64,000 nt of DNA, from contig PLZS01000038.1 of NCBI GenBank assembly GCA_003153555.1, forward strand, positions 6,120-70,119, in the 5' to 3' direction. Each line of letters starts with the position of its first letter. The stretch's first letter is position 1. The notes beneath the pieces are model-generated. The model did no database searches. It was not told where the DNA came from and worked only from the letters and a program-made list of their open reading frames with translations. The stretch is from Candidatus Melainabacteria bacterium. GTDB lineage: Bacteria > Cyanobacteriota > Vampirovibrionia > Obscuribacterales > Obscuribacteraceae. Both the position numbers and the translations under genes were made by a program. Of this stretch, positions 7,639-54,241 are shown piece by piece.

Positions 7639-10513
7639 TAGATTGCTCCATCTCTTCTTCGTCGTCCGACTGGAGAAGCTCCAGAGCGTCCGCTTGGGAA
7701 CCCAATCCTATGTGATTGGGCATGACGGCTAATTGTATCTCTTTCAGGGATGCAGACGAACACCATTCCTTAAACTCTTTCGCAGCTTTAAGGGATAAGA
7801 CGAGCTGTTTGAACTCAGGCAGCTCTTCAGCGTTGCCTGTGGCTGGACCGAGCAGGTCCAGGTTGATGAAGCCATCCTCCGAAAACCAATCAATCAAGTT
7901 TACCTTCTTCAAGATCGTCAGCCCAAGCGCTACTGACATCTTGGTGCTGCCGAGCACAGCTGCGAGCTTTTCTCCATGCGCCTGCCCATCTTTTTTATTG
8001 ACTGCGTATTTGACCAGCCCAAATAATTTCTTCAAAAACAGGCTTGAATCAAACGAATCATCATTCTCGGAGATGCCGACCAAATAAATGGTTTGTGCAC
8101 CTGATTGAGAAAGCAATTCCTGAAAGACCATACTGCTGGGAGGAGTTTGCCAAACGATCAAATGCTGTTTGCGCCCAACAGTCATCCGATCAACGAATTC
8201 GAAAGCCGCTTGCCTAGGGCTATTTTCAGCAAATATGCTGACGTTAGCGCCAAGCTTTTCTATAGCCTTGGCGAGAATTTCTGCGGCTTTACTGTGATTT
8301 CGCAGATCTTTCCAGATTAACTTCGAACTAGTGGCAGAGAAGTCTCGCGGCGGTGTGAAGTCGGAAGAGGCTCGGTCTTGCGTCGCGGCGGGACTAGTAT
8401 CAGGCAGGGACAGTCCCGCTCCAGTGGCGGTAGGCGAGTCATTACGACTACTGGCGTTTACTTCGGATTGTGGACCAGCACCTGGACTGGATTGTGGACC
8501 AGGATCTGGACCGGATTGTGGAGCACCTGGTTCGAGTTGTGGACGAGCACCTGAACCGGGTTGTGGACCAGAATTCAGTCCGGCTCGTGAAGCGGCACCG
8601 AGTCCGGCAGCCAAGCCACTCTGCGGGACGAAGTCCGCAATTCCCATCGTCTTTTTGACTGGCACTGCAGATGGTGCCGATACCGACAATGGTGCAGGGG
8701 CAAATACCCTGGTGTTGCTGTCGCGCCAGTCTGAAAGAACTAACTGCAATCGCTCTTTGTTGTTGAAGGCATTAATTTCAGGAGTGAAAACGGCATCAAT
8801 AATTTGCTTGTCCGCCGGCACATTCCCGCGAGTATTCCACATCACACATTCGAAATTCATTCCACTTTGAGGGTCCTCAAGCATGACTCGATGATGTTTG
8901 CCATCCTTTCCCAGGACGCGAGTGCTAAGGCAAGACAATGACCGCATGCATAGCGTTGGTTTCTTGTTCCACATTCCAAAAGGTGCCAGCTTAGTCAAAA
9001 GCTTTGCCATCTGCTCATTGACGGAAGAAGGAGCAACTTGCACGTCAATTTTGATAGTGGCCTTAAGAGGCGTATCGATGAGCAGCCGATTGCATGTATC
9101 AGTTAGCCCTCGGCAAAGAGCATCGGCCTTGTCTGCATCGACCGTAAAGCCGGCGGCCATTTTATGACCACCGAATTTCACCAATAGATGGTCGTTATGT
9201 TTGAGCACTTGATAAAGATCAATCGCGTCGATACTACGAGCGGAGCCTTTAACAATCCCCTCGGATCGATCCAATTCACCGATGAAAACTGGACGGTGAT
9301 ATTTTTCTACCAATCGAGAGGCAACAATTCCAACAACCCCGTGATGCCAGCCCTCATCGTAGATCGCGATACAACGATCGCGCTCCATGTCCAGACGAGT
9401 AGCGATCATCACTTCTGCCTTGGCGTAGATTTCCTCGCACAGTTCTTGTCGACGCAAATTATCCGTCTGCAATTGACGCGCCAATTTATCAGCGACTTCT
9501 TCATCGGGAGTGGTTAACAGCTCCACGGCAATACGGGCATCAGCCAAACGACCAACAGCGTTTATTCTTGGCGCCAGACCGAAGCCGACAAGGTCAGTGT
9601 CGTCCGATTTTTTCACCTGAGCAAGAAGCGCTTGTATCCCTGGTCTGGCAGAGTTTACGAGCACCGGCAATCCAATTTTAACCAAGTAGCGATTCTCTCG
9701 AATCAGTGGCACGAGATCGGCGATCATGCCGAGCGTCACGTAGTCCAAAAGCAGAGGAACTTCCTCAGGCATGCCTTTGTCGATCAATAACGCTTCGCAA
9801 ACTTTATAAGCAACTCCAACACCGGGCAAGTGAAAAAGTGGATGCTCTTCGTGCAAGCGCTTAGGATGAACAATACCAACTGCAGGCGGCAGCATCTCCG
9901 GCATCGTGTGGTGATCCAAGACCAGAGTGTCGACGCCCAACGATTTCGCAAATTGAATTTCAGCAAAGTTCGACACGCCGCAATCGCAGGAAATAATCAA
10001 TTTGGTGCGGTGCTTACTCGCGAGGATGCTGACTGCTTTCAAGTTCAACCCATATCCTTCACCCGCTCGGTTGGGGATATAGAAGTCGACAACGGCACCT
10101 AACTTGCGAAGCACCGTCAGCAGAACGGATGTGCCAGTCACACCGTCAACGTCATAGTCACCATATACGGTTATGCGTTGCCCTTTGGCAATCGCTTCAG
10201 TAATCCGCATGACCGCTTTATCAACGTCTGGCAATTCCATCGGGCTGGTCGGTTGATAGAGTTCCGTGTTCAAGAAGCTTTTTGCTTCATCGGTCTTTGC
10301 CACACCACGAGCATTTAAAATATGAGCAAGCAACTCTGAGCCATCCGCGGCATCGACAAAACCAGGCTCGAAATCTGGCGCAGCCTGAAATTGCCAAAAT
10401 TTTCCCAAGGCGGACAATCTGGCTTGTTCATCGCCTTCAGCAAAACTGGCAGAGTTAGCCACAGATATTGTCACGAGCACCCCCGACGAGACAGCGGTAT
10501 GTCTGCAAGACAT
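7586..10513 (-). CDS. recJ: single-stranded-DNA-specific exonuclease RecJ with a ~400-aa C-terminal extension
   Basis: DHH motifs (DYDVDGVTG, LVLDHH), DHHA1 motif FGGHKMAAGFT, and an OB-like segment. A P/G/Q/S low-complexity linker follows (GPQPGSGARPQLEPGAPQSGPDPGPQSSPGAGPQ), then an extra ~270-aa domain. The start codon is uncertain. Confidence 0.85.
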   Translation of the reverse strand: MSCRHTAVSSGVLVTISVANSASFAEGDEQARLSALGKFWQFQAAPDFEPGFVDAADGSELLAHILNARGVAKTDEAKSFLNTELYQPTSPMELPDVDKAVMRITEAIAKGQRITVYGDYDVDGVTGTSVLLTVLRKLGAVVDFYIPNRAGEGYGLNLKAVSILASKHRTKLIISCDCGVSNFAEIQFAKSLGVDTLVLDHHTMPEMLPPAVGIVHPKRLHEEHPLFHLPGVGVAYKVCEALLIDKGMPEEVPLLLDYVTLGMIADLVPLIRENRYLVKIGLPVLVNSARPGIQALLAQVKKSDDTDLVGFGLAPRINAVGRLADARIAVELLTTPDEEVADKLARQLQTDNLRRQELCEEIYAKAEVMIATRLDMERDRCIAIYDEGWHHGVVGIVASRLVEKYHRPVFIGELDRSEGIVKGSARSIDAIDLYQVLKHNDHLLVKFGGHKMAAGFTVDADKADALCRGLTDTCNRLLIDTPLKATIKIDVQVAPSSVNEQMAKLLTKLAPFGMWNKKPTLCMRSLSCLSTRVLGKDGKHHRVMLEDPQSGMNFECVMWNTRGNVPADKQIIDAVFTPEINAFNNKERLQLVLSDWRDSNTRVFAPAPLSVSAPSAVPVKKTMGIADFVPQSGLAAGLGAASRAGLNSGPQPGSGARPQLEPGAPQSGPDPGPQSSPGAGPQSEVNASSRNDSPTATGAGLSLPDTSPAATQDRASSDFTPPRDFSATSSKLIWKDLRNHSKAAEILAKAIEKLGANVSIFAENSPRQAAFEFVDRMTVGRKQHLIVWQTPPSSMVFQELLSQSGAQTIYLVGISENDDSFDSSLFLKKLFGLVKYAVNKKDGQAHGEKLAAVLGSTKMSVALGLTILKKVNLIDWFSEDGFINLDLLGPATGNAEELPEFKQLVLSLKAAKEFKEWCSSASLKEIQLAVMPNHIGLGSQADALELLQSDDEEEMEQSNEYPSGQEQIGTVRPSA

Positions 10514-19083: not shown

Positions 19084-19188
19084 TACCGAATATGGTGTAA
19101 GCAAACACCCTTCAGGACAGTATTGTGATTAAATTACCGCCCGCAATTGGAAGAATCGGGTATATTGCTTGGGTCAGGTCGAGATTTT

Positions 19189-21438
19189 ATGAACCTCAAC
19201 AACCCCGATAAGCAAAATCTCGAAGATGCTTCGCCAAGCAAGCACTTGCTGTCGAACTTTTACATGCCCGAACCAGGCACGTTCATAGGCAAGTATGAGT
19301 TGCTTGAACAGATTGGGGTTGGGGGAATGAGCATTGTCTTTAAGGCTCAAGACAAAGCACTTAATCGTCTTGTGGCAATTAAGTTCCTTTTGCCACAATC
19401 CAATACGGAAACTATCAACCTACTACGATTTCAGCAAGAAGCTCGAGCCGCCAGCAGCCTCGAACACCCTAACATCGTAAAAATTTATGATTTCAGCACC
19501 ACTTCAGAAGGTATTCCGTTCCTGGTAATGAGTTATTTGGATGGGGTCTCGTTAGCCGATGCCATAAAAATAGAAGGTTCGCTGCCTATTAGTCGCTGGT
19601 TGTCCATCATGATCCAAGCTTGCGATGCTTTAGAACACGCACATCAAAACGGCATCATTCATCGAGATATCAAACCAGGCAATTTTGTTCTTGCTCAGGA
19701 AAAGGGCACTGAAGTTCTTAAGCTTGTAGATTTCGGGATAGCAAAAAATTCTTTCGACGACATGAGCCTAACTAAAACCGGTGACGTTTTTGGTAGCCCA
19801 CTCTACATGAGTCCCGAACAGTGCTCAGGGCTCAAACTTGATTTGCGTTCGGACATTTACTCGTTGGGCTGCGTAATGTATGAGGCGCTGACGGGACGAC
19901 CGCCTCTATCCGGTGACAATTCACTCAGCACAATGCAAAAACATATAGGCGAAAAACCTGAGCCCCTGCAAAAGCTGAGACCCGGAGTAAAAAATATCGC
20001 TTCCATAGACAGAATAGTCATGCGCTGTTTGGAGAAAAAACCAGAAGCCCGATATCAAGATTTGGGTGTCTTGCGCAACGAACTCAATCAAATATTCGTG
20101 GGACAATCATTAACAAATAACTTTTCGCCGCGGCGAATAGCCGCAAGCTTAGGGCTTTTAGCTTTGTTCACTATCACGTCGTGCTGGTTTTACATGGAGC
20201 ATAAGACCCCACCAGCATCCAAGCCCGGACAAAGTGAGTCACTATCTGCGATTGCTACTCCAAAAGCGAGAGATTCAGCTCCAAAAGAATCGATGAATGC
20301 AAAGGATGAAGTAGAAAAGAAAACGAAGCTCGACTCATTGTTGGCACAAGCTAACTACCTGATCACTCATGGTAACAGTGATGCTGCACTCAGACAGTTA
20401 AATGAATCGCTTCAATTAGCCACGGAACTAGGCAAGCCCGCAACGGAATTAGCTCCAATAATCATGCAAATTGCAAACTGCGAACGCGATCTCAAAATTT
20501 TAAGTGCAGGTGAACACTATGAACAGGCATTACATTTAGTGGCAGATGCCGACCTTCCTCCAGACCTGATAGTACAATACGATTGCCAAACGCAATTGGG
20601 AAATTTAGCACTAAACCGCGGTAACCCGGAACAAGCCAAACCACATTACGAGAATGCGTACTTCACGGCTGTGAAGCAAAGAAACATCGAACATCAGGCA
20701 TTGAGCTTTGAAAAACAAGGCGCATGCTCAAAAGCAGAACAAAAGCTAGAAGAGTGCAAAAAAGAATGGACGACTGCTTTGAAGATAATGCCGAATAATC
20801 CGAAGCTCCTAGACAAACTCAATGAGCTTCTCCGAAGGCAAGGCAAGCCAGAAATAACGGATGCCAATGTGCGAAGTTCACTAAACGAGGCAGATACAGT
20901 AAAAAAGCTCTACGCGGAAGGAGAGTCTTTTCTTAAAGCCGAATCATACAAACAAGCAGAGGAAAAATACAAACAAGCATTGCAGCAAATTATCGAGCAT
21001 AAAAATGGTCCACAGCAGATGGCAGTGATTCTGAGCCAGTTAGGGCAGGCTGAATCTAGACTGAGCGAAGGACAAGCCGCAAAGCGAGATTTTCTCAGGG
21101 CACTATATTTGGTATCGGGGAGCGACACCAAAGCAGCGCAACGATGTAAATTCACAATCCTTGTAGGCTTGGGCCGACAATCCAGGATCGCTGGCGACAT
21201 GCCCAAAGCGAAAAAGTATTATTCACAACTGTATGAATACTCAACCGAACTGGAGAAAAAAGCGAGCAGTGAAAAAGAACTGAAACCAATAGATGGTCTG
21301 AAAGCAGATGCCTTAGCTCAATTAGGAGAATGTTCCTTCGCGGAACACGATTTTGCAGAATGTGCAAAGTATTGGCGGCAATCGATAGAAATTCGACCTA
21401 ATGCAGACCTGCAGAAACGCCTGAAAGATCTGCACTAA
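19189..21438 (+). CDS. Hanks-type Ser/Thr protein kinase with TM segment and C-terminal TPR-like region
   Basis: GVGGMSIVFKA, HRDIKPGN, DFG, SPEQ. A TM helix (LGLLALFTITSCWFYM) and a helical repeat region follow. The ORF opens at TTG 19147; ATG 19189 is chosen. Confidence 0.85.
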   Translation: MNLNNPDKQNLEDASPSKHLLSNFYMPEPGTFIGKYELLEQIGVGGMSIVFKAQDKALNRLVAIKFLLPQSNTETINLLRFQQEARAASSLEHPNIVKIYDFSTTSEGIPFLVMSYLDGVSLADAIKIEGSLPISRWLSIMIQACDALEHAHQNGIIHRDIKPGNFVLAQEKGTEVLKLVDFGIAKNSFDDMSLTKTGDVFGSPLYMSPEQCSGLKLDLRSDIYSLGCVMYEALTGRPPLSGDNSLSTMQKHIGEKPEPLQKLRPGVKNIASIDRIVMRCLEKKPEARYQDLGVLRNELNQIFVGQSLTNNFSPRRIAASLGLLALFTITSCWFYMEHKTPPASKPGQSESLSAIATPKARDSAPKESMNAKDEVEKKTKLDSLLAQANYLITHGNSDAALRQLNESLQLATELGKPATELAPIIMQIANCERDLKILSAGEHYEQALHLVADADLPPDLIVQYDCQTQLGNLALNRGNPEQAKPHYENAYFTAVKQRNIEHQALSFEKQGACSKAEQKLEECKKEWTTALKIMPNNPKLLDKLNELLRRQGKPEITDANVRSSLNEADTVKKLYAEGESFLKAESYKQAEEKYKQALQQIIEHKNGPQQMAVILSQLGQAESRLSEGQAAKRDFLRALYLVSGSDTKAAQRCKFTILVGLGRQSRIAGDMPKAKKYYSQLYEYSTELEKKASSEKELKPIDGLKADALAQLGECSFAEHDFAECAKYWRQSIEIRPNADLQKRLKDLH

Positions 21439-21475
21439 CAGTTCACGGCTTGCTGATACAAGGTTTTGACAGGCT

Positions 21476-21724
21476 CTAGTCAGGCCAGGGTTGCACCAAT
21501 TTTTTCTCGCCTGGTTTCAATCCACCGAGATGTTTCAGCACGTCATCGTAATACTTGTCGCCAACCTTGTATTTCGTCCTAGAATCCACGTTCATTCCGT
21601 CAGCAGTCCTTCTCATTTGCAACACGATTGCTCCGTTTTCATCTAACCAAGCTTCGCCGATGGCATTTAGATTGGCATTCTGAACATCATCTGACACTGA
21701 TCCACCGCCGCCAGCATCAGTCAT
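21476..21724 (-). CDS. small cytosolic paralog of the C-terminal domain of the 24530..25024 protein (chimeric N-terminus)
   Basis: NLNAIGEAWLDENGAIVLQMRR..DG....Y.VGDKYYDDVLKHLGGLKPGEKKLVQPWPD aligns along its length with the last ~67 aa of the 164-aa protein. Its first 9 codons (MTDAGGGGS) are identical to codons 36-44 of the 25008..26480 protein. Confidence 0.6.
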   Translation of the reverse strand: MTDAGGGGSVSDDVQNANLNAIGEAWLDENGAIVLQMRRTADGMNVDSRTKYKVGDKYYDDVLKHLGGLKPGEKKLVQPWPD

Positions 21725-21783
21725 GGTGCCGGTGCTCAGTCCATGTCTCGCCAGGTCGAGGCCGAGAGCGAAGCGGCATGCGA
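21697..21783 (-). repeat. remnant of the 5' end plus upstream leader of the M34-like gene
   Basis: 21697..21742 is identical (46/46) to 26348..26393. 21743..21783 matches 26479..26519 at about 36/41. The ~85 nt that separate these blocks at 26.4 kb are missing here. Confidence 0.85.
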
Positions 21784-21957
21784 GTTATCAACGATGGTAA
21801 GATTCAGCAAAGATTCATTTCATAAGTTAGTCGTTGTCAGGATTTAATCCTTGGGTCATACGATCTGGACAGTTAATTCAGTTAATTGGCAGACCAGACA
21901 GATCTCCATCTGCGAGGATATATTTGGAAGGCATCTTAAACACAAAACCGACTGGTA

Positions 21958-23544
21958 ATGCTTGTGGTTGGCAAACGGACTGAGAACACTGCCAATACAA
22001 ATGATCTTTGCACGACGTGTGGTCTAAAGAGCGGCACCAGTGGCTCGATGACAACATGGATTTTGCGGGGCGGCCGCTGCAAATGCAACATCGACGCCGT
22101 TGCCAGGCAGACGTCAAATGGACAGATACTTACCAGGCCGGTTGGTGCTCAGGGAAGCCGCCCAGCAGGACGCGTCTTGAATGAGCGATATCAGCTTTTG
22201 GAACCAGTCGGGCGCGGTGGCGTGTGCCTTGTATACAAGGCCGAGGATTTGACAACCAAAGAGGTAGTCGCCCTCAAACTCATGCGCCCGGAGTTTGCTG
22301 AGCATGAGCAGGCGGTACAACGTCTGATAAAGGAAGTCGACACAGCGGCCCAGTTGATTCACCAAAATCTGGTGCGAGTGCATGGATATGGACAAGATCG
22401 CAAGGGTGAGTCTTATCTTGTCATGGATTTCGTAGCCGGAGAAAACCTGGATGAGCTGATGATTAAGAGCGGAGGGAGACTAGAACCTCGACGCGCTCTG
22501 GAAGTATTCACTCAAATTTGCGAAGGTCTCAAGTGTGCACACGCGCATGGTGTGATTCACCGTGATCTCAAGCCCAGCAACATCATCATTACCCCAGAAG
22601 CCGGCGGGCGCGAAACAGTGAAAATAGTTGACTTCGGGTTTGCCAAGTTGACTGAAACCGGTGATAGCTCTCTAAGATTGACCCAGACAGGTGAGGTATT
22701 TGGCAGTCCCTTCTATATGAGTCCGGAACATTGCCTTGGCAAAGAGCTTGACGCGCGTTCGGATATCTACTCTCTGGGCTGTCTCATGTATGAAACACTT
22801 TCAGGCTGCCCGCCACTGAAGGGAGATAACGTGTTGGCGACTGTCGCTAAACAGGTCACAGAAGAACCAGCGAGCATGCGCACTCTCCATCGATCCATTT
22901 CTGAAAGCCTGGACAACGTGGTGCTCAGGTGCCTGGCAAAAGAACCGGTGCTTAGATATCAGTGCGTGTCCGATTTGCTGTCGGATCTGCACAGTCTAAG
23001 GAGTGGAAAGCACATAAAAGCACCGCTTAAAGCGGCAAAACGACCTTCTTATGAGGTCAAGTCTCTGAGAATCAGAGAAATGTCTGGGTTCAAATGGGCT
23101 GGGCTTCTCCCCACGTTGCTGACCATCGTGCTGTCTGGGTCCGTTGCACTTGTCTTCATGTCCATGCACAAACCTGCTACCACAGCTGTGATCACTCCGG
23201 CAGCTGTGATCAGTCCGGCGCGGAAGAACCTCAAGCCAAAAACGAACCCCAAAACGCATCTTCCTTCGCTCCAGGCAGGAAATGCTTCAAGCATTACTGG
23301 GTTGACAGACAAGACGCAAGGAGCTACTAATCCAGGTCCTGTCGAGCCAAGCAAAGCAACCGAGCGCTCCGGCTTGAGACCACAATTGATTCATGTTGCT
23401 GTTGCTGCACCTTTGCACCACGTCGACCGAAGCCCAAAGCGCGCAGCATTGCCTAAACCTCGACCTGCAAAAAAAATAGCGCCAACATCCAAAGAATCGT
23501 CCAAAGGCTGGGCCGAACTGAAGGAACTCAGAACCGACAGATGA
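21958..23544 (+). CDS. Hanks-type Ser/Thr protein kinase with N-terminal 4-Cys motif, TM segment and basic/Pro-rich tail
   Basis: GRGGVCLVYKA, HRDLKPSN, DFG, SPEH. N-terminal CTTCG..(18)..CKC; TM helix LLPTLLTIVLSGSVALVFM. Confidence 0.85.
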   Translation: MLVVGKRTENTANTNDLCTTCGLKSGTSGSMTTWILRGGRCKCNIDAVARQTSNGQILTRPVGAQGSRPAGRVLNERYQLLEPVGRGGVCLVYKAEDLTTKEVVALKLMRPEFAEHEQAVQRLIKEVDTAAQLIHQNLVRVHGYGQDRKGESYLVMDFVAGENLDELMIKSGGRLEPRRALEVFTQICEGLKCAHAHGVIHRDLKPSNIIITPEAGGRETVKIVDFGFAKLTETGDSSLRLTQTGEVFGSPFYMSPEHCLGKELDARSDIYSLGCLMYETLSGCPPLKGDNVLATVAKQVTEEPASMRTLHRSISESLDNVVLRCLAKEPVLRYQCVSDLLSDLHSLRSGKHIKAPLKAAKRPSYEVKSLRIREMSGFKWAGLLPTLLTIVLSGSVALVFMSMHKPATTAVITPAAVISPARKNLKPKTNPKTHLPSLQAGNASSITGLTDKTQGATNPGPVEPSKATERSGLRPQLIHVAVAAPLHHVDRSPKRAALPKPRPAKKIAPTSKESSKGWAELKELRTDR

Positions 23545-24529: not shown

Positions 24530-25024
24530 CTAGTCAGGCCAAGGTAGCACTAATTTTTTCTCGCCCGGCTTCAATCCACCGAGATGTTTCATGACTTCAT
24601 CGTAGTTCTTGTCGCCAACTGGATAATGCAAAGTCCCATCAGTCGGCCTGCCGTCAGCGTCTCTGCGCATCCGAAGAACGATGGTGCCCTTTTCGTCTAA
24701 CCAGGCTTCGCCTAATGCATTCAGATTCGCATTCGCCGACTCAGTCTCTTCTGACACATGACCTCCTTTTTTTGAAGCCGCTGAACATCTGCTTTTCATA
24801 ATGTCCAGAGCGTTAAAAACTGGCGTCGCGTCCTTGCTCACATCATGTTGCGTAACGCACTTATCCATATTTTTCCCCTTTGTCGCACACTTATCGCCGG
24901 ACACTTCTTTTACAACCTTCTCGCCTTGTTTTTCTTTAGCCTCAACAAGGTCAACACTGCAAAAACAAACGAGCAAAAGACTCATGCAAAACGTGAATAG
25001 CTGCCATCTATTGTGGAACTTCAT
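24530..25024 (-). CDS. small secreted protein, candidate inhibitor/immunity/chaperone partner of the M34-like protein
   Basis: Signal peptide MKFHNRWQLFTFCMSLLLVCFCSVDLVEA. The start overlaps the upstream stop by 17 nt. The C-terminal ~67-aa domain is duplicated at 21476..21724. Confidence 0.65.
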   Translation of the reverse strand: MKFHNRWQLFTFCMSLLLVCFCSVDLVEAKEKQGEKVVKEVSGDKCATKGKNMDKCVTQHDVSKDATPVFNALDIMKSRCSAASKKGGHVSEETESANANLNALGEAWLDEKGTIVLRMRRDADGRPTDGTLHYPVGDKNYDEVMKHLGGLKPGEKKLVLPWPD

Positions 25025-26480
25025 TCATTCTCTTCCGAACGTAGTCGATAGTATTGGGATAGGTTTGCATGATCTGATCCATTTGCGACTGATTAGCCGG
25101 TCCGCCGTTTATGGCAGCAAAAGTTTCGGCGAAAGCTTCTGACCTGCCTCCCTTTGCCTGAACAAGATATTGCTCCCTTAATTTCGTTTCGGGCGACATA
25201 GCTGCCACATCTTTGTCGTAAGCCGCCTTAAACTCTGGTGAGTTAGAAGGATAGTCTAGAGCATGATCAACAGCATGTCCGCCCTCATGCCTCACCGCAC
25301 CAGCGTCGCGATTTGACGGACCTGATGAAGTATATTCGGCTACCACAGCAGTACGTTTCTCGGGGAAATAGGAACCTTCAATATCGGCATATGTCGAACC
25401 TACAGGATGACCTGGTGGACGCTTTCCTTCTAGTTCGGGCATTGCCCCGACAAGAGTGCCCGCAATTAAAAACTTGGCACCACTATCTGCGAGCAGCTTT
25501 TTAGTCGAGGCAGGAAGTTGAGCAATATCAGCCTTCACTTTTTCAGCAAAATCCTCACTTGCACCCTTAACTTCAACTACCGGTCCAACGCGCTCGCCTT
25601 TATCATTCACCGTTGTTTCGGAATACTCTAAGTTCTTTTTCTGATCATGCTGAGTGGTCGTGCCGTCTTTGTTCTTGGTCGTTTCAAAGTAACTTCCATC
25701 TGCTCGGGTAACTCTGTCACGAACGACATTGCCTGATGGATCGGTAGTCTCAGTCGTGGAACCGCCACCATCCTTAATATCATTTACGGTGTGGACGGTT
25801 GTTGATGTTCCGTTTTTGTCCGTTAGAGTTTCGACGTAGCTACCATCCTTCTTTTGGTCGTGGAATGTAGTAGAGTTGTCCGGATTTAATTTGCGTTCGG
25901 TGTAGCTATGATCAGCATTTTCAGATTTTCTATCTGTCACCAAACCGGCTTTGTTACGTGTGGTAGTTTCGGTTTTTCCATCAGCACCAACGCTGGTATC
26001 AGTGAAACCACCATCAGGATTAGTGACATGGCTTTTCGATGTGACTTTGCCATCTTGAGTTAGATTTGTTTCGCTAAAATCCCCGTTCGCCTTCTGTTCA
26101 CGAACTTTGACGGAGTGGTCTTTGGGATCGAGCGTTTGCTCGCTGAAACTTTTGTCAGGATTATCGGTGCGATTCTTAATTGCTTGACCCGATTTGTCGA
26201 ACGTGGTCGTGTCAATCGAACCACTCATTCGTGTTGAAGAGTCAGTATGCCCCCCGTCAGTATTCTTTTTGCTACTTCGAAGCATCACTTCGTCGGGCCC
26301 GCTATGGTCGGGAGTTGCACCCTTTTTGGCTTTGCCGTCGACGCCATCTGATCCACCGCCGCCAGCATCAGTCATGGTGCCGGTGCTCAGTCCTGCATAC
26401 TGTTGGTTTGGATAAACAGGCTTTTCATTAAAACTGACGTCGCCCGAAGTTGTACCTTTCTTCGGACCGGTACTCTCCAT
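25008..26480 (-). CDS. repeat-containing protein with C-terminal M34 (anthrax-LF / Pro-Pro endopeptidase-like) zinc metalloprotease domain
   Basis: The C-terminus reads LPASTKKLLADSGAKFLIAG..PELEGKRPPGHP..EGSYFPEKRTAVV..VRHEGGHAVDH..GGRSEAFAETFA (HExxH plus a downstream Glu in an EaFAE context). The N-terminal ~300 aa are D/T/S/K/G-rich degenerate ~23-aa repeats. No signal peptide. Confidence 0.7.
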   Translation of the reverse strand: MESTGPKKGTTSGDVSFNEKPVYPNQQYAGLSTGTMTDAGGGGSDGVDGKAKKGATPDHSGPDEVMLRSSKKNTDGGHTDSSTRMSGSIDTTTFDKSGQAIKNRTDNPDKSFSEQTLDPKDHSVKVREQKANGDFSETNLTQDGKVTSKSHVTNPDGGFTDTSVGADGKTETTTRNKAGLVTDRKSENADHSYTERKLNPDNSTTFHDQKKDGSYVETLTDKNGTSTTVHTVNDIKDGGGSTTETTDPSGNVVRDRVTRADGSYFETTKNKDGTTTQHDQKKNLEYSETTVNDKGERVGPVVEVKGASEDFAEKVKADIAQLPASTKKLLADSGAKFLIAGTLVGAMPELEGKRPPGHPVGSTYADIEGSYFPEKRTAVVAEYTSSGPSNRDAGAVRHEGGHAVDHALDYPSNSPEFKAAYDKDVAAMSPETKLREQYLVQAKGGRSEAFAETFAAINGGPANQSQMDQIMQTYPNTIDYVRKRMNEVPQ

Positions 26481-26519
26481 GTCTCGCCACGTTGAGGCAG
26501 AGAGAGAAGCCGCATGCGA

Positions 26520-27422
26520 CTACGGACCTTCGTGGCCGGGGCTAGGACCAGGACCGGGACCGGGACCAGGACCGGGACCAGGACCAGGACCGGGACCAGG
26601 ACCGGGCCCAGGACCGGGCCCAGGACCGGGCCCAGGACCAGGACCAGGCCCGGGCCCAGGACCAGGACCAGGCCCAGGACCGGGCCCAGGCCCAGGACCG
26701 GGCCCAGGACCGGGTCCTGGCCCACTAGGCGGAGGGCAGGTCGGAGGCGGGTTGTTGCACAGACCTGGCACCTCTGATGGTTGTCCGAACAAAACCTGTT
26801 GATGCTCACGATCGAAGACATCATCAGGCACAGACGACTGCAAATTTAGAATCGGATAGAGATAACTGCTTTCAAAAGTAAGAGAGCCGTTACCGTTGTC
26901 TCCGGTAAACTGAGCGCCACCAAAAAAGAAGATCGGTGCGGGTAACGACACCTGCAAGCGGGTTGCAATGAAGACCGTCGGTTGATTATCAGGATCAATT
27001 GGATTTGCTGATCCGAATGGTTTGACACCATTGTAGATAAATTTCGACACCGTTAAATTCTTGATGAACTGACCATCGACCCTTTGATGGGCTGTGAGCG
27101 CATTCGTCGCTGCGGCTTGTGCTTTACTCGGCGGTGCGATCCCAGCGGCCCTCGCCGCATCTCGGCACGCCTCATTGTTGACACCATTGGCAATTATTAG
27201 AACCGCAACGTCAGCACAAAGCAACGTCAGCACAATAAAGAAAAACGAGCCTACAGCCAGCTCCACTGCTGACATACCTCGACTCCGACTCGCAAGTTGA
27301 TTTGAAGCACTCGGGACGAGTGCGCTCCATTTCGTTTTTAAGGTGCGAGATCTCGAAGCACTAGCTCCGAGTGCGCTCCATTTCGTTTTAGAAGTGTGTG
27401 CTTTTGCTTTCATGCTATTCAA
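26520..27422 (-). CDS. TadE-like pseudopilin with proline-rich (GP)30 C-terminal tail
   Basis: Prepilin-like junction SRG|MSAVELAVGSFFFIVLTLL, with Glu at +5 and a hydrophobic helix. The C-terminus reads CNNPPPTCPPPS(GP)nSPGHEGP. The start overlaps the tadG-like stop by 8 nt. Confidence 0.7.
   Translation of the reverse strand: MNSMKAKAHTSKTKWSALGASASRSRTLKTKWSALVPSASNQLASRSRGMSAVELAVGSFFFIVLTLLCADVAVLIIANGVNNEACRDAARAAGIAPPSKAQAAATNALTAHQRVDGQFIKNLTVSKFIYNGVKPFGSANPIDPDNQPTVFIATRLQVSLPAPIFFFGGAQFTGDNGNGSLTFESSYLYPILNLQSSVPDDVFDREHQQVLFGQPSEVPGLCNNPPPTCPPPSGPGPGPGPGPGPGPGPGPGPGPGPGPGPGPGPGPGPGPGPGPGPGPGPGPGPGPGPGPGPSPGHEGP
26545..26724 (-). repeat. 30 tandem hexanucleotides (GGNCCN) encoding Gly-Pro dipeptides
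   Basis: Counted directly: ggacca/ggaccg/ggccca/ggcccg/ggtcct units, 180 nt, in frame with 26520..27422. Synonymous positions vary between units. Confidence 0.95.
27304..27390 (-). repeat. 51-nt-period tandem duplication inside the pseudopilin leader
   Basis: gaagcactcgggacgagtgcgctccatttcgttttta and gaagcactagctccgagtgcgctccatttcgtttta. At protein level, KTKWSAL..SASRSR occurs twice. Confidence 0.7.
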
Positions 27423-29736: not shown

Positions 29737-29875
29737 ATTTCCTTCAGAGCGGCAGATTACCGAAGTTTAATCCGCTCCAAAATCAATGTCAACCTCACAA
29801 TGGAGTTACGGCAACGGTATCAGGAATTAACTCCTGCATGCACGTTCTGCATGCCCGTACTTTCCGGCAAAACGA

Positions 29876-30493: not shown

Positions 30494-31063
30494 TTACAAC
30501 ATCAAACCCTTGGGATTTTCAAACACACGTTGTCCGTGGATTGCTAGCGGAAACGGTGCGGTCAGTCCAGGGATGTCGCCGAGCCAGCCGCCTTTGTAGC
30601 TGAGAAGTGGGTCTGTTTCAGCTCTTACAAGTACATCAATGTAATAGGTGTGTCCGTCTTGAGGACGTGAAGTTAGTGGTGCATACGTTGGGCCAACTTT
30701 GGCGCCACTTGCGTTGTCGATGTCGACAATGCCGGTTTTGACATCAATCACGCGAGCGCCACTGAATGAGTTCAGGTAGCGGTTAACTTCGGTACGGGCT
30801 ACAAATTCGGCTGGTACGTTGTTCGCCAAAGTTCCGGCTGGTACGTTGGCGGCAACTCTGTAGGTCAGTGCCTTGCACGCTCTTTCCGATCCCACCTTCG
30901 CGGAGTTCATCACGAAGCAAGCACGCATGCCCATGGCGCCGAGGTTCATAAGCGGAAAGGTTAGGAAAATGAAGAAGACTGCGAGTAACATCGCTGATTC
31001 GGCCAACGCTTGACCACGACAAGACCGCATTCCGAGCTTTGCTTGGGAATTCATTTTAGCCAC
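30494..31063 (-). CDS. TadE-like pseudopilin
   Basis: MRSCRG|QALAESAMLLAVFFIFLTFPLMNLG: Gly cleavage context, Glu at +5, hydrophobic helix. Confidence 0.7.
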   Translation of the reverse strand: MAKMNSQAKLGMRSCRGQALAESAMLLAVFFIFLTFPLMNLGAMGMRACFVMNSAKVGSERACKALTYRVAANVPAGTLANNVPAEFVARTEVNRYLNSFSGARVIDVKTGIVDIDNASGAKVGPTYAPLTSRPQDGHTYYIDVLVRAETDPLLSYKGGWLGDIPGLTAPFPLAIHGQRVFENPKGLML

Positions 31064-36563: not shown

Positions 36564-38825
36564 GTGCACTCGGAGCAGCGTTTTACAGAAGATCAAGAAG
36601 AGCAATCGCAGCTCGACGAAGCCTTATCCACGCCAGAAGACCAGGATAAGAAGGGGTCGGGTGCTGCCCCTCAGGACAAGTTCATCGGAAAGACAATTGC
36701 GGGGCGCTATGAGGTCTTAGATCTTGCCGGCAGAGGGGGCATGAGCGTGGTTTATCGCGCCAAGCACCTCTTAACACAGAAGATTGTGGCGCTAAAACTC
36801 ATGCATTCCCATTTATTAACCGACGAGAACGCGGTGCGTCGCTTCCAGCAAGAAGCGAAAGCGGCCAGCCGCTTGCAGCATCCAAATGCAATTTCAGTTC
36901 AGGATATGGGTGTGACAGAGGACGGGCAGCCATTTTTAACGATGGATTATCTAGATGGCTTGCCGCTTTCTGATGTGATCAAGACATGGGGAAAAATGGA
37001 TCCCAAACGTTGCATCCATATCTTTGTCCAAGTTTGCGCCGCTCTCGCCCATGCACATGATCAGCGAATTGTGCATCGCGATCTTAAACCAAGCAACGTA
37101 ATGTTAGTACGCTCAGATGAGAATCCTGATTTCGTAAAAGTTGTCGATTTCGGCATCGCCAAAATCTTGCCGGAAGCTGGAGAAGTACTCAAGCTCACGG
37201 CAACTGGTGAAGTGTTCGGCAGTCCTTTATACATGAGCCCAGAACAATGCATGGGTCGTCAGCTCGATGCGCGGTCGGATATTTATTCAATGGGTTGCTT
37301 GATGTATGAGGCTCTTACAGGGAAGGCGCCTCATGAAGGCAACAATGCTTTAGAAACTATGTACAAGCATACAAATTTAGCCGCGCCATTGTTGGCAGAT
37401 ATAGACGCTGATCCAAGGCTCATCCAACGCCTCGACCACATCTTACAAAAGTGCATGGCGAAAGTGCCCGAGCAACGTTACCAAAGTATGCTCGAGTTGA
37501 GGAATGAATTGTTAGAGGTGGCCGGTTCCGCAAAAAAAGGTTCAAAAATAGCGGCAAAATTAGGGATGGGAGCGGCTGACAAAGGCCGCAAATTCGACAA
37601 CAAGCTCTCCACAGTCTCGTCTAGAAAATTATTCTGGTATGTGGCAATGCCACTACTATTGGTGCTCGGAGTAGGAGCGTCATCATTTGGCTATTACTGG
37701 ATAAGTACCGCGGGAGATCCAATGCTCACCGACCGCGAGTTGGTTTTAAATCGATACATGTCGAGAGTCAAGGCGGATAGCGACATAGCAGAAAGCATGG
37801 AGAAAGAATGCAAGACAGCGCCGGCAGTTCTACAGAAAAGTATTGAAAATCTAAGCGATGCCGATCAGAACCACGAGTCCAATCTGGCTGCGTACTCAGC
37901 AATGAAGCGAGCCGTTCACAGCTACACACCACAAGAATATTACTATAAATGCCAACGGTATGGAATGTATTTCACTAAAAATGGTGACTACACCGAAGCT
38001 ATAGAGGCTTTTACAACCGCGTTGGGCGTGTCAGTTACAGGTGGATTTTCAAATCGTTTGGACAGTGCCATGATGCAGGCACTAATGGCTGAGTGCCTTA
38101 TGGCAGAAGGCGAAGACTCTAAAACCAACGTTCGCCTGGATGCTAAACCAGGTAGCTTAGAAGCTCTTGATTGGGCACTTGCAGCATCCAAGGGCTTCGA
38201 AGATGGCAATGTCACCTCAGCTCCATATGTGACTGCCAATTTGGGAAATTTACTCGAACTTTACTCCGCTCGACCGGCGCAGTTGAGTGCCGGAATACCA
38301 TACTTGGAGAAATTGTTTAGAAAGAGGGAGAATGCTCCGCTGGTTGACGGTCTGGCCTTCGCGCAAGCGGCCCAGTTTGCCGAAGCTTGCTCAAAAAACG
38401 GCATTGCCACGATTACGCTTTGGGAACTTGATCCGCAAAGTTACATGGAGACAAGAATTCCCGTTTCGTCGGCGGAGATTGCAGCGAGGTCGCTGCGTAA
38501 GTCTCTCACTGCATGGTCACAACTCGAACGCAGACGATCCAAGCGAGCCGTTTTTTACAACGAAGGGGTCATTCTCAATCGGCTGGGGTTACTTGCGGAA
38601 CAAAATGGCGATCTACCCCTATCCGAGCAACAGTTTAACAATGCGCTCGAAAAGCTCGCTGAGGCCAACAACAACAAAGACGAATCAGTGGCTAAGGTCT
38701 TGTTTAATCTCAGCGAAGTTCAACTTAAAGAGCATAAATTTTCAGAATACTACAAGAATCACAGCGACGCCAAGAGAATCTGGGCCGATACATTCCACCC
38801 CCGGAAAAAACAGTCCAGCACCTGA
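36564..38825 (+). CDS. Hanks-type Ser/Thr protein kinase with TM segment and helical C-terminal domain
   Basis: GRGGMSVVYRA, HRDLKPSN, DFG, SPEQ. TM helix LFWYVAMPLLLVLGVGA. GTG start. Confidence 0.85.
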   Translation: MHSEQRFTEDQEEQSQLDEALSTPEDQDKKGSGAAPQDKFIGKTIAGRYEVLDLAGRGGMSVVYRAKHLLTQKIVALKLMHSHLLTDENAVRRFQQEAKAASRLQHPNAISVQDMGVTEDGQPFLTMDYLDGLPLSDVIKTWGKMDPKRCIHIFVQVCAALAHAHDQRIVHRDLKPSNVMLVRSDENPDFVKVVDFGIAKILPEAGEVLKLTATGEVFGSPLYMSPEQCMGRQLDARSDIYSMGCLMYEALTGKAPHEGNNALETMYKHTNLAAPLLADIDADPRLIQRLDHILQKCMAKVPEQRYQSMLELRNELLEVAGSAKKGSKIAAKLGMGAADKGRKFDNKLSTVSSRKLFWYVAMPLLLVLGVGASSFGYYWISTAGDPMLTDRELVLNRYMSRVKADSDIAESMEKECKTAPAVLQKSIENLSDADQNHESNLAAYSAMKRAVHSYTPQEYYYKCQRYGMYFTKNGDYTEAIEAFTTALGVSVTGGFSNRLDSAMMQALMAECLMAEGEDSKTNVRLDAKPGSLEALDWALAASKGFEDGNVTSAPYVTANLGNLLELYSARPAQLSAGIPYLEKLFRKRENAPLVDGLAFAQAAQFAEACSKNGIATITLWELDPQSYMETRIPVSSAEIAARSLRKSLTAWSQLERRRSKRAVFYNEGVILNRLGLLAEQNGDLPLSEQQFNNALEKLAEANNNKDESVAKVLFNLSEVQLKEHKFSEYYKNHSDAKRIWADTFHPRKKQSST

Positions 38826-51071: not shown

Positions 51072-51170
51072 TGGCTTGTGGGTCCGCCGTTGCGTGCTAG
51101 CATGATAATAGTTGAACTTTTTTGCTGTGTCAGACGTATAAGTAAGTGATGAGTTTACGAGGTGCACATC
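51072..51170 (+). repeat. conserved leader of the coiled-coil gene family (copy 1)
   Basis: gcttgtgggtccgccgttgcgtgctagcatgataatagttgaacttttttgctgtgtcagacgtataagtaagtgatgagtttacgaggtgca is near-identical to 54242..54339. It contains the palindrome tgctagca, a TTGAAC/TATAAG pair (19-nt spacer) and a GAGG Shine-Dalgarno. Confidence 0.85.
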
Positions 51171-51452
51171 ATGGCTGAATGGGAAACGGCATTTGAAAGG
51201 TTAGCTGGCGAGATGCGCATTGGCTTTGGTCAGGTCGTTTCAGCGGTTCAACAAACCAACGAGCAACTTGTTCAAACCAACCTACGATTGGACCAAACCA
51301 ACGAGCAGCTTAAGGAGTTTAAGCAATCGGTAAACTCAAAGCTGGATGGTATCGGTAGTTATCTCAAATTGATTGACCGGAATTTTGCGGGAGTGGAAGT
51401 GAGACTGACGAAGATAGAGCATCGAGTAGACAGGCTGGAAGACGTAGGGTAG
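51171..51452 (+). CDS. small coiled-coil protein, family copy 1 (3 QTNxxLx heptads)
   Basis: MAEWETAFERLAGEMRIGFGQVVSAVQ, then QTNEQLV QTNLRLD QTNEQLK (51252..51314), then EFKQSVNSKLDGIGSYLKLIDRNFAGVEVRLTKIEHRVDRLEDVG. Confidence 0.7.
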   Translation: MAEWETAFERLAGEMRIGFGQVVSAVQQTNEQLVQTNLRLDQTNEQLKEFKQSVNSKLDGIGSYLKLIDRNFAGVEVRLTKIEHRVDRLEDVG

Positions 51453-51453
51453 G

Positions 51454-51508
51454 ACTTTTTTGCTGTGTCAGACGTATAAGTAAGTGATGAGTTCACGAGG
51501 TGCAGATA
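51454..51508 (+). repeat. short (3' half only) leader, copy 2
   Basis: acttttttgctgtgtcagacgtataagtaagtgatgagttcacgaggtgca. It lacks the tgctagca palindrome and the TTGAAC box and starts 2 nt after the copy-1 stop. Confidence 0.8.
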
Positions 51509-51811
51509 ATGGCTGAATGGGAAACGGCATTTGAAAGATTAGCTGGCGAGATGCGAATTGGCTTTGGTCAGGTCGTTTCAGCGGTTCAACAAACTAACGT
51601 GCGGTTGGACCAAACCAATGAGCAGCTTGTTCAAACCAACCTACGATTGGACCAAACCAACGAGCATCTTAAGGAATTCAAGCTATCCGTAAACTCAAAG
51701 CTGGATGGTATCGGTAGTTACCTCAAACTGATTGACCGGAATTTTGACGGAGTAGAAATGCGACTGACGAAGATCGAGCATCGAGTAGACAGGCTGGAAG
51801 ACGTAGGGTAG
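51509..51811 (+). CDS. small coiled-coil protein, family copy 2 (4 heptads)
   Basis: Same N- and C-terminal modules; the heptad array at 51590..51673 reads QTNVRLD QTNEQLV QTNLRLD QTNEHLK. Confidence 0.7.
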   Translation: MAEWETAFERLAGEMRIGFGQVVSAVQQTNVRLDQTNEQLVQTNLRLDQTNEHLKEFKLSVNSKLDGIGSYLKLIDRNFDGVEMRLTKIEHRVDRLEDVG

Positions 51812-51860
51812 GCGAACAGTAACAATTTTTCCCACCCCGGAATTACCCGTAATTATTGCG

Positions 51861-52496
51861 ATGAAAGAAACGAACACACCGACGCATCTATCAGCAGATG
51901 AGTACTTGCGTGCAGAAGAAGTCAGTACTTTGCGGCGAGAGTATGTAGACGGACGCGTATTCACCATGACCGGCACGACACTCAGGCACAATGCCCTGGT
52001 GAACAACATATATTCCGCGCTTCGCGCACACACAAAAAACGGTCCCTGCAAAGCCTATACAATTGACGTAAAAGTACATGTGCAAAGCGCGAATAGTTTT
52101 TATTATCCCGACGTTGTCGTTACCTGTAGCAAATCGCCTGATAATAGCTTGATTGTGGAGTCTCCAGTTTTTATTGCTGAAGTGTTATCGCGCTCTACTA
52201 GCCTTGTCGACCGGCGCGAGAAAGTGGTCACCTACAAGCAACTTCCCTCGTTGAAGGAATATTTGATTGTTCATCAGACAAAAAAGAAAGTAGAGTTGCA
52301 TCGTAGAATAGATTCTAATTCTTGGGAGATTCTGGAACTGATTCAGGGCGAACTCCTACTCTTAGTGTCCATGCCTTGTGGCCCAATGCGAATAACATTC
52401 GATGACCTGTATGAAGACGTACAGTTCGAATCTGGATTCGTCAAAGAAGAACCAACTGAGTATGAAACATCTCAAGAAGGGGAATTTGATTACTAG
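51861..52496 (+). CDS. Uma2-family (DUF820) endonuclease with acidic tail
   Basis: EYVDGRVFTMTG.T..H, YYPDVVV and IAEVLSRSTSLVDRREKVVTYKQLPSLKEYLI. The tail reads EEPTEYETSQEGEFDY. By eye, roughly half its residues match the 31403..32080 protein. Confidence 0.8.
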   Translation: MKETNTPTHLSADEYLRAEEVSTLRREYVDGRVFTMTGTTLRHNALVNNIYSALRAHTKNGPCKAYTIDVKVHVQSANSFYYPDVVVTCSKSPDNSLIVESPVFIAEVLSRSTSLVDRREKVVTYKQLPSLKEYLIVHQTKKKVELHRRIDSNSWEILELIQGELLLLVSMPCGPMRITFDDLYEDVQFESGFVKEEPTEYETSQEGEFDY

Positions 52497-52566
52497 GTGC
52501 GAGAGCTTTCATCGCTCCAGCAATTCGTTTTAGTGCAACATCAACCCCGAGTGACCGGCAACGCGA

Positions 52567-52666
52567 GCTTGCAGTGGATCTGGCGTTGCGTGCTAGCATG
52601 CTAACAGCTGAACTTTTTTGCGGTGTCAGACGTATAAGTAAGTGATGAGTTCACGAGGTGTGCATA
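52567..52666 (+). repeat. conserved leader, copy 3 (more diverged 5' part)
   Basis: gcgttgcgtgctagcatgctaacagctgaacttttttgcggtgtcagacgtataagtaagtgatgagttcacgaggtgtgca. Confidence 0.8.
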
Positions 52667-53011: not shown

Positions 53012-53059
53012 GAAACAACGGCGCATCTATCAGCTAGTAGGTGCGCGAGCTTTCATTGC
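53012..53059 (+). pseudogene. internally deleted remnant of a Uma2 endonuclease gene
   Basis: gaaacaacggcgcatctatcagc resembles 51867..51895 (Uma2 codons 3-12). It is joined directly to tagtaggtgcgcgagctttcattgc, which resembles 52491..52515 (the Uma2 stop plus downstream). About 595 nt of gene interior are missing. Confidence 0.5.
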
Positions 53060-53076
53060 ATTCGTCGTGCTGCGTT

Positions 53077-53331: not shown

Positions 53332-53350
53332 ACTATTTGGTCAATCATGC

Positions 53351-54185: not shown

Positions 54186-54241
54186 TACATTTCCCGAGTT
54201 TTAATTTCCGAACATGGCATCTAGAGCTAAGTCTAGCTCAC

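Follow-up and report, generated by a model that had tools for sequence, protein, structure and literature searches.

Two questions are raised by a pilin locus of Candidatus Melainabacteria bacterium, a non-photosynthetic relative of cyanobacteria in the Obscuribacterales: what does a run of thirty Gly-Pro dipeptides do at the end of a pilin, and does the protease encoded directly behind the pilin act on it? We examined this locus in a 64,000-nt stretch of contig PLZS01000038.1 (assembly GCA_003153555.1, positions 6,120 to 70,119 of the forward strand), referred to here as the window. A gene for a TadE-like pseudopilin in this window ends in a (GP)30 tail, and the next gene on the same strand encodes a metalloprotease of the PPEP-like type (Table 1). 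We consider it probable, with appreciable room for doubt, that (GP)30 is the lineage-specific, slippage-expanded form of a conserved and compositionally free proline-based tail on a probable Tad tip minor pilin, and that the protease is an inserted neighbor.

The tail is conserved while its repeat unit changes

The minus-strand open reading frame (ORF) 26520..27422 ends in ...GLCNNPPPTCPPPS-(GP)30-SPGHEGP; written with its stop codon, which lies at 26520..26522, the end reads ...VPGLCNNPPPTCPPPS-(GP)30-SPGHEGP-TAG. Tandem Repeats Finder recovers the run with periods of 12, 18, and 30 nt and 85-87% matches. The initial annotation had recognized a (GP)30 run encoded by 180 nt, which we confirm, and had placed it at 26545..26724, one nucleotide away from its actual position (Table 1). 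A plus-strand ORF across the same region (26479..26802) was rejected as a gene, since it is a mirror artefact of hexamers (GGNCCN) that read as Gly-Pro on both strands; the minus strand is the coding one because homology fixes it.

Ten orthologues of the pilin (57-83% identity) reach as far as the tail, namely those of eight species-level genomes together with proteins P0021 and P0023. In all ten, the last strand of the pilin (YLYPILN) is followed by a C-x6-C loop, then by a low-complexity stretch rich in proline (about 40-70 residues), and finally by a short cap that is Gly-rich or acidic. The window tail reads CNNPPPTC-PPPS-(GP)30-SPGHEGP. The tail of locus L014 (83% identity) reads CNNPPPNC-PPPN-(GP)3-SN-T7-GVNPT-(GP)7-STTGNNGEYPG, and that of L015 (82% identity) is also GP-rich, including about (GP)11, and ends ...GAGNFPG. 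Elsewhere the stretch consists of (PQ)9 in L016 and about (PQ)14 in L017, with or without P14 and ending ...GGSFEDP or GGNNEDP; of P20-25 with the end -GGNNEDP in L018-L021; and of (AP)n-rich sequence ending ...GGANGDG in P0021 and P0023.

The repeat unit thus varies among GP, PQ, poly-Pro, and AP. The loop keeps its spacing in the variants CNNPPPNC, CNNPPSEC, CKDDIPPC, CSDSIPDC, CDDAPPTC, and CQPAPPPC; the caps are GGNNEDP, GGSFEDP, NNGEYPG, AGNFPG, and GGANGDG; and the stop codon is mostly TAG (TAA in L017 and L019). Because a proline-based tail is kept while its repeat unit changes freely, these data suggest that a physical property of the tail matters rather than a sequence-specific role. 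Among the functions first suggested for the tail, that of a rigid spacer or stalk on a minor pilin fits this pattern.

An eleventh contig ends before the tail. The ends of P0022 (...KIGRAHV; at the 3' end of L012) and of P0085 (...CLLYTSPSPRD) are translated sequencing adapters at contig ends, and P0022 was rejected as a tail-less orthologue since its short "tail" is Illumina adapter. In both cases the contig stopped within the proline-rich repeat; assemblies are cut short by low-complexity tails, and the homologues then look "short" when they are not.

Among 108 representatives of the wider family, the median tail is 11 residues long and none is a pure (GP)n, while 43 carry a low-complexity tail of at least 30 residues that is P-, D/E-, S/T-, or A-rich. 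A C-terminal extension on such a pseudopilin is therefore not unusual in itself, as had been supposed; only the pure GP composition and the length are. A homology search with the tail itself returned four short low-complexity proteins of eukaryote-like or unknown origin and no long (GP)n, a result limited by bias filters, so that the rarity of (GP)30 is not established by the search. Procyclin-type proteins (PF05887) were returned by the same search. The literature on proline-rich pilin tails and on Melainabacteria pili yielded nothing specific.

The (GP)30 array bears the signature of slippage

The third codon positions of the array had been described as scrambled, which had been taken to mean that the peptide was selected and not recently expanded by slippage. 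The 30 units are GGTCCT (15), GGGCCC (6), GGTCCC (4), GGGCCT (3), GGGCCA (1), and GGACCC (1). GGC and CCG never occur and CCA occurs once, so that essentially two codon pairs make up the array. Six large neighboring genes use all four Gly and all four Pro codons, and compared to this local usage the array is skewed (chi-square, p = 1e-6 for Gly and 8e-8 for Pro). If synonymous codons were chosen at random, about 13 unit types would be expected; six were seen, and six or fewer arose in 0 of 20,000 simulations. The description as scrambled was therefore overstated.

The array was also compared across assemblies. L008, assembled independently from another strain (99.08% identity, 148 mismatches over 21.5 kb), has identical (GP)30 DNA. 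L009 has zero mismatches over 18.3 kb but encodes (GP)28, one GGTCCTGGGCCC unit (12 nt) being missing. The run is thus reproducible and a one-off assembly artefact, a concern raised in the initial annotation, is excluded, while the exact length is uncertain by about two units.

Because the array is built from two founder codon pairs and shows a 12-nt indel in an assembly with no mismatches, we conclude that replication slippage enlarged an older GP motif. The 30-unit array is a recent slippage expansion from two founder units. Sister species encode GP with mixtures of GGA/GGT and CCA/CCG/CCC/CCT, and since their GP codons differ, GP has been retained through synonymous change. The choice of peptide selection over slippage therefore holds in one respect and fails in the other: GP motifs with different codons persist in two sister species, while the 30-unit array itself bears the mark of slippage.

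Two other interpretations of the repeat were rejected. It is not a collagen-like (G-X-Y)n repeat, as Gly falls at every second residue and not at every third. Nor is it a phase-variation switch, since 6- and 12-nt units and the observed 12-nt indel keep the frame and would vary length without turning expression on or off.

It could be speculated that the tail is nothing but a slippage-prone 3' end with no selected function, tolerated since the C-terminus of the pilin is exposed. The free shifts in composition among species, the slippage signature with its length polymorphism, and the many family members that have no tail are all consistent with this possibility. On the other hand, 40-70 proline-based residues and a cap are kept in all orthologues that extend into the tail, even at about 57% identity, whereas drift alone should have removed the tail by stop mutations in some lineages; the retention of GP with different codons in sister species also argues against it. 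We consider this neutral explanation rather unlikely.

The tailed pilin lies in a conserved cluster of Tad-like minor pilins

Candidate starts of the pilin at ATG 27413 or TTG 27422 would give a leader of 46-49 residues, while gene callers took ATG 27275. The true start is probably ATG 27413, with a 46-residue leader, because the ORF is open to that point and its relatives begin right after the TadG gene. Within the putative leader is a 42-nt imperfect direct duplication (27304-27345 and 27355-27396, minus strand, 83% identity), which encodes KTKWSAL twice and yields 46 residues as compared to about 15 in L014. The protein carries a class III signal, ...SRSRG/MSAVELAVGSFFFIVLTLLCADVAVLIIA (the slash marks a predicted or candidate cleavage site here and below), in which Gly occupies -1 and Glu +5 and a hydrophobic helix of about 20 residues follows. 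This prepilin motif is kept in P0022-P0024 and L014 as G/VSAIE, G/VTVVE, and G/MSAVE.

By itself the window pilin scores 17.7-18.7 bits against PF07811 (TadE), under the Pfam cut-off of 22.9. A profile search across 1.84 billion representatives returned 309 relatives, 40 of which were scanned against Pfam; 17 of the 40 matched PF07811 (E<=0.01; best 2.9e-8). Judged from these profile matches, the TadE assignment appears to be supported at the level of the family, the window protein alone being sub-threshold. An AlphaFold 2 (AF2) model of the pilin has a long N-terminal helix and a sheet of 4-5 strands, and all residues beyond 144 are disordered.

Genes for a large TadG-like pilin and for another small pseudopilin accompany that of the tailed pilin. 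Orthologues of the TadG-like gene (57-79% identity) lie directly upstream of the tailed pilin in L010-L012 and L014-L022, and those of the second pseudopilin occupy the same position in L012, L014-L017, and L019-L022. The order second TadE, TPR gene, TadG-vWA, tailed TadE recurs in at least 10 loci (L012 and L014-L022), all from metagenome-assembled genomes (MAGs) of Candidatus Obscuribacterales or Melainabacteria. A promoter-like site (10 of 12 matches) lies at 29792..29764; in a promoter and terminator scan of the locus, counts were no higher than in shuffled controls. An NCBIfam scan of five neighborhood proteins gave no match.

A proposed proline spacer on a probable tip pilin

We propose that the three pilins (tailed TadE, TadG-vWA, and second TadE) most likely make up the complex that primes a Tad (type IVc) pilus or forms its tip. 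The location at the tip is suggested by analogy, as TadE, TadF, and TadG homologues are predicted to form tip complexes with variable exposed C-terminal parts (PMC12075869). Past the head of the window pilin, the C-x6-C loop would probably be closed by a disulfide and would lead into 40-70 residues of (XP)n or poly-Pro and then into the short Gly-rich or acidic end. The tail may be an extended, flexible-to-stiff, polyproline-II-like spacer of up to about 19 nm (at about 3.1 Å per residue) that projects from the exposed C-terminus of the tip pilin and holds the short end-piece off the filament. Selection would act on the physical length and proline content of the tail and not on its exact sequence. 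In this lineage an ancestral short GP motif was expanded by slippage of 6- and 12-nt units, its length still varying (30 versus 28 units), and the PPEP-like gene and its partner are a separately evolving module inserted behind the pilin stop, not a conserved partner of the tail. The sequences show the anatomy of the locus, the conservation of the tail, the mark of slippage, and the insertion; the position at the tip, the disulfide, the extended form of the tail, and its role as a spacer are inferred.

Several observations weigh against this proposal. The pilin model is of low confidence (predicted local distance difference test, pLDDT, of only 64), and a Foldseek search with it was uninformative, giving no significant match (best, a type IV-like pilin at E=0.3). 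The Tad machinery (ATPase TadA/CpaF, platform TadB/C, secretin RcpA, and prepilin peptidase TadV) was not found among the larger window ORFs scanned, which include kinases, TPR proteins, an ABC transporter, and RecJ. The 12-nt difference between 28 and 30 units could reflect either population variation or collapse of the repeat in a short-read assembly. Poly(GP) may be a flexible coil and not a stiff rod. Finally, there may be a strain-specific functional link between protease and tail, because the protease module is probably co-transcribed with the pilin.

A PPEP-like protease and its small partner

The initial annotation had noted a PPEP-like domain in the next gene, 39 nt downstream of the pilin, and this is borne out: the spacer has that length, and both Foldseek and a family profile confirm the fold. 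The AF2 model of the 490-aa protein (pLDDT 85) comprises disordered residues 1-60, a single-layer beta ribbon (residues 61-305) that matches engineered OspA, and a zinc metalloprotease domain (residues 306-490) with HEGGH, Tyr438, and Glu448. The score against the ATLF/M34 Pfam model is 26.6 bits as compared to a cut-off of 27.4. In Foldseek the top PDB matches of the protease domain are PPEP-3, PPEP-1, and PPEP-2 (target-normalized TM-score 0.65-0.71, 18-21% identity), with lethal factor behind them. Likewise, a profile of 20 homologues finds PPEP-1 at E=1.9e-11 and anthrax lethal factor at about 1e-4.

H398, E399, H402, Y438, and E448 are invariant across the 20 homologues and align to PPEP-1 motifs. 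The S-loop family motif PrGW..G.TWdd.dG aligns to PKGWEGTGKTWDDVPG, and the S-loop of the window protease, ...PPGHPVGSTYADIEG, has Tyr at the aromatic position (Trp103 in PPEP-1, Tyr113 in PPEP-3). The protein thus combines HEXXH, the zinc-binding Glu, and the oxyanion Tyr with a PPEP fold and its S-loop aromatic. By inspection it has no signal peptide, its N-terminus (MESTGPKKGTTSGD...) being hydrophilic and its orthologues alike. The published PPEP family is defined by E<1e-25 to PPEP-1 or PPEP-2 and occurs in Firmicutes only, in Bacilli and Clostridia (PMC8610288); the window protease falls short of this threshold, and its single-sequence match to PPEP-2 has E=0.09. The term PPEP-like is therefore warranted by fold and motifs, although the protein stands well apart from the published family. 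Cleavage of Pro-Pro bonds by such a domain is not a given, because the PPEP-like protein CD1597 has no detectable Pro-Pro activity (PMC11460543).

The C-terminal domain (about 65 aa) of the 164-aa protein encoded next (Table 1) is a recurrent partner of PPEP-like domains, detected by hmmsearch with strong E-values in 12 loci, where it is fused to the protease or lies beside it. In 6 loci it forms an N-terminal fusion with the protease, and in 7 an adjacent gene encodes it, 3 of them having both arrangements. Its consensus is ...G(T/A)IVL.LR....G....Y..GD..Y..V..HLGGLKPGE.K.V.PWP, and it has no Pfam or NCBIfam match. It was seen in the window at 24530-25024 and 21476-21724 (both minus strand), in L013 at 8825-9157, and in L023, L024, L026, L029-L032, L044, and L045, as well as in P0013. 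The domain is a candidate inhibitor, immunity protein, or pro-domain.

The PPEP-like metalloprotease family is widespread outside Firmicutes, in Melainabacteria and in many metagenome contigs (loci L001-L007 and L023-L075). In L013, a protein (P0016, 7992-8825) fuses a Flp-type pilin N-terminus (G/ATMVEYLIVIAVVAVAAIGA) to a PPEP-like domain; a gene for a partner lipoprotein lies directly downstream and a Secretin_N gene nearby. Such a fusion occurs in one of 54 PPEP-like loci.

The protease module appears to be inserted behind the pilin

Homology of the protease module stops at 26519, 1 nt past the TAG of the pilin, and after the pilin stop the protease begins with ATG at 26480. The spacer between the genes contains the motif AASLS..W, which matches the N-terminal extensions of the protease orthologues P0003, P0005, and P0006 and is also found upstream of P0002. 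The spacer lacks a stop codon because it is homologous to these coding extensions. A second, rearranged copy of the module lies in the same window (Table 1): positions 21697-21742 equal 26348-26393 at 46 of 46 positions, 21740-21783 equal 26476-26519 at 89%, and an 82-nt internal deletion separates the duplicated protease 5' fragments upstream of the 82-aa paralogue. Because the 5' end of the protease and the spacer are duplicated in two fragments, the module evidently recombines within the genome.

The pairing of protease and pilin is not seen elsewhere. Eight related pilin loci include 4-6 kb of downstream flank, and the protease is absent from all of them, as it is from two further short contigs. 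In L014 and L015 a kinase gene in convergent orientation ends about 18 nt beyond the pilin stop, and in L016-L021 an HTTM gene follows the pilin. Conversely, no pilin gene was found in the six orthologous protease loci fetched (five distinct proteins, 39-52% identity), most of which lie beside xanthine-dehydrogenase genes. A metagenome scan with a 7-sequence alignment gave 53 distant PPEP-like loci, and none of these, nor L013, contains a TadE-like ORF (0 of 54). One MAG, JBBQFO01, has both the tailed pilin and the protease genes, on different contigs. Related tailed pilins are thus not linked to an M34 gene, an outcome that the initial annotation had named as evidence against its own proposal. 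Judged from these comparisons, the protease and its partner appear to be a mobile or duplicating module that landed behind the pilin gene, the insertion being specific to this lineage.

Does the protease shed the tail?

The initial annotation had proposed that the adjacent protease cuts the pilin at NNP/PPT or CPP/PS, with (GP)30 as a pro-peptide or releasable stalk; candidate peptide substrates under this model are GLCNNPPPTCPPPSGPGP and GLCNNPPPTCPPPSGPGPGP. The proposal has several attractions. The PPEP-like fold and profile, the intact HExxH, Tyr, and Glu, and the aromatic residue in the S-loop suit such an activity, and the Cys loop with its Pro-Pro bonds is conserved. Only 39 nt separate the two genes, which share a strand, and no convincing terminator lies in between, the only hairpin, over the TAG, being weak and of a kind not found above background. 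Known PPEP systems also encode substrates near the protease (PMC8610288), and the presence of both genes, unlinked, in MAG JBBQFO01 would allow action in trans.

The absence of linkage speaks against the proposal: the two genes are neighbors in this lineage alone (0 of 8 pilin loci, 0 of 6 orthologous protease loci, and 0 of 54 distant loci), the tail and its PP motifs are kept where no protease lies alongside, and the recurrent partner of the protease is the small downstream domain. The candidate sites are no more favorable. Pro-Pro bonds had been thought to occur only just N-terminal to the tail; this is incorrect, as an invariant A47-P48-P49 lies in the pilin head (27129..27134). The five sites are NNP/PPT, NPP/PTC, TCP/PPS, CPP/PSG, and IAP/PSK. 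A Pro at P3' is a preference shared by PPEPs (PMC12828418, the PPEP-3 paper). None of the five has one, the four near the tail having T, C, S, or G there, so that the substrate pattern xxP/PxP does not occur. Each site is single, whereas PPEP-1 substrates bear multiple consecutive sites, and the first two (NNP/PPT and NPP/PTC) fall inside the conserved C-x6-C loop, which places NNPPPT within a likely disulfide loop. The pattern of sites argues against cleavage of the pilin, yet the specificity of a distant protease family may differ. The missing signal peptide, the disordered residues 1-60, and the precedent of CD1597 (PMC11460543) count against cleavage as well. We regard shedding of the tail by the adjacent protease as very improbable.

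The tail could alternatively serve as a scaffold for O-glycosylation or another modification on the exposed pilin, a role compatible with that of a spacer. Pro/Ser/Thr-rich linkers and pilin C-termini are glycosylation sites in other bacteria, and T7 and STT/STTSS runs stand beside GP units in the sister tails. The window (GP)30 has no Ser or Thr, only Ser184 and Ser245 flanking it, and no glycosyltransferase was found among the neighboring genes scanned; a scaffold of this type is very improbable here.

It is equally improbable that the captured PPEP-like module is functionally coupled to the tail in this strain, either trimming the Pro-Pro loop and so releasing (GP)30 or being displayed on the Tad tip as a read-through fusion. 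If true, PPEP-type systems would be extended for the first time beyond Firmicutes and, also for the first time, to a type IV filament.

Read-through of the TAG as such, giving a pilin-(GP)30-protease fusion in which (GP)30 is a linker and the pilin an export route for the signal-less protease, is extremely improbable: the single in-frame TAG followed by 13 sense codons, the homology of the spacer to coding sequence of orthologues, the signal peptide that is absent in the protease and present in its partner protein, and the unrelated Flp-PPEP fusion P0016 (the only outside support) are outweighed by a shared frame expected by chance in one of three cases, a lack of stops explained by the coding ancestry of the spacer, a TAG that is the native pilin stop in most sister species and ends 9 of the 24 large window ORFs, a duplicate of the same spacer upstream of the 82-aa paralogue with no pilin, protease orthologues that also lack a signal peptide and have no pilin upstream, and the lack of a known read-through signal for this sequence context. 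A sequencing error at the TAG was rejected, as three assemblies share the codon and the pilins of most sister species end in it natively.

Other features of the window

Coordinates of the features are collected in Table 1. Three Ser/Thr kinase genes and several TPR-only genes flank the pilin cluster (19147-23544; 36564-38825, plus strand). Two of the three kinase genes carry TPR repeats, the scan for these having covered all but the 528-aa one. Convergent kinase genes abut the pilin stop codon in sister genomes. Farther along the window (51162-54726, plus strand) are four paralogous small ORFs of 96-136 aa, which start ...MAEWE.AFERLAGEMRIGFGQVVSAVQQTN... and are interspersed with unrelated genes. 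What varies among them is how many 7-residue QTNLRLD/QTNEQLV repeats they have; at the DNA level these are the 21- and 42-nt tandem arrays.

Table 1. Features of the pilin and protease locus, with positions in the window
Feature	Position	Strand	Basis or remark
Second, rearranged module copy: partner paralogue (82 aa, 69% identical) and protease 5'-end fragments	21476..21783	minus	Sequence matches
164-aa exported small protein	24530..25024	minus	Overlaps protease stop by 17 nt
490-aa PPEP-like protein	25008..26480	minus	AF2, Foldseek, family profile
39-nt spacer SHAASLSASTWRD	26481..26519	minus	In frame with both ORFs, no stops; 5' end of inserted module
TadE-like pseudopilin gene with tail	26520..27413	minus	Start uncertain
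Non-repeat cap SPGHEGP and native TAG stop	26520..26543	minus	Similar caps in orthologues
(GP)30 array, 180 nt	26544..26723	minus	ORF translation, Tandem Repeats Finder
Cys loop and Pro triplets, C173-NNPPPT-C180-PPPS	26724..26759	minus	C-x6-C conserved
Predicted prepilin-peptidase site G/MSAVE, then hydrophobic helix	27261..27278	minus	Gly -1, Glu +5; predicted cleavage
TadG-like large minor pilin, vWA domain, 773 aa	27415..29736	minus	Pfam VWA 24 bits; first gene of pseudopilin operon
Second TadE-like pseudopilin (G/QALAE)	30494..31063	minus	Motif; no Pfam match of its own; part of conserved pilin cluster

Relation to known systems and biological meaning

The window pilin resembles the TadE/TadF/TadG minor pilins, including KilL/KilM/KilN of Myxococcus, in its TadE-like N-terminus (Gly -1, Glu +5, hydrophobic helix), and like them it is encoded with a large TadG-like pilin and a second small one (PMC12075869). 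The exposed variable C-termini of Tad minor pilins customize the tip, and intramolecular disulfides are predicted for these proteins (PMC12075869). The window differs from Tad tip pilins in that its variable part is a 67-residue dipeptide-repeat region past a small Cys loop and not a folded module, and from Tad systems in that no Tad machinery genes were seen near the pilin among the ORFs scanned, in a lineage that is Obscuribacterales. PilB (vWA) and PilC (lectin) of S. sanguinis, cited in PMC12075869, are likewise minor pilins that display an extra C-terminal element at the tip. Their modules, in contrast, are folded domains with defined ligands, while the window tail is of low complexity with no recognizable binding domain.

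Alternating (XP)n spacers are known from TonB ((EP)n/(KP)n), from trypanosome procyclin ((EP)n), and from the (AP)n linkers of lipoyl-domain proteins. In these proteins, alternating X-Pro stretches tens of residues long serve as extended, protease-resistant spacers whose copy number differs between alleles. Unlike these, the window tail has Gly as X, which should make it much more flexible, and its repeat is found at the extreme C-terminus of a pilin; the comparison does not imply homology.

The Pro-Pro endopeptidases (PPEPs, EC 3.4.24.89) PPEP-1, paired with CD2831/CD3246, and PPEP-2, paired with a neighboring adhesin, are secreted and release adhesins of their own cells (PMC8610288, PMC12828418). 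The window neighbor shares with them the PPEP fold, HExxH with Tyr and Glu, and the S-loop motif, and here too an adhesion-related surface protein with Pro-Pro bonds is encoded alongside. It differs in the lack of a signal peptide, the added beta-ribbon domain, and a similarity far below the family threshold; in candidate sites that have no P3' Pro and are not repeated; and in an adjacency that is not conserved, the conserved partner being another small protein.

This locus illustrates that adjacency in a single genome can mislead and that comparative loci can separate a conserved tail from a recently inserted protease. The occurrence of PPEP-like domains well outside Firmicutes, together with a conserved, undescribed partner of about 65 residues, may interest protease researchers more than the tail. 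If the spacer interpretation is correct, a Tad tip pilin of Obscuribacterales bears, in place of a folded module, a proline whisker that evolves fast and can be tuned in length. Such a whisker would be a cheap means of varying the reach or surface properties of the pilus tip, and it would add to the recent idea that TadE, TadF, and TadG tips customize Tad pili.

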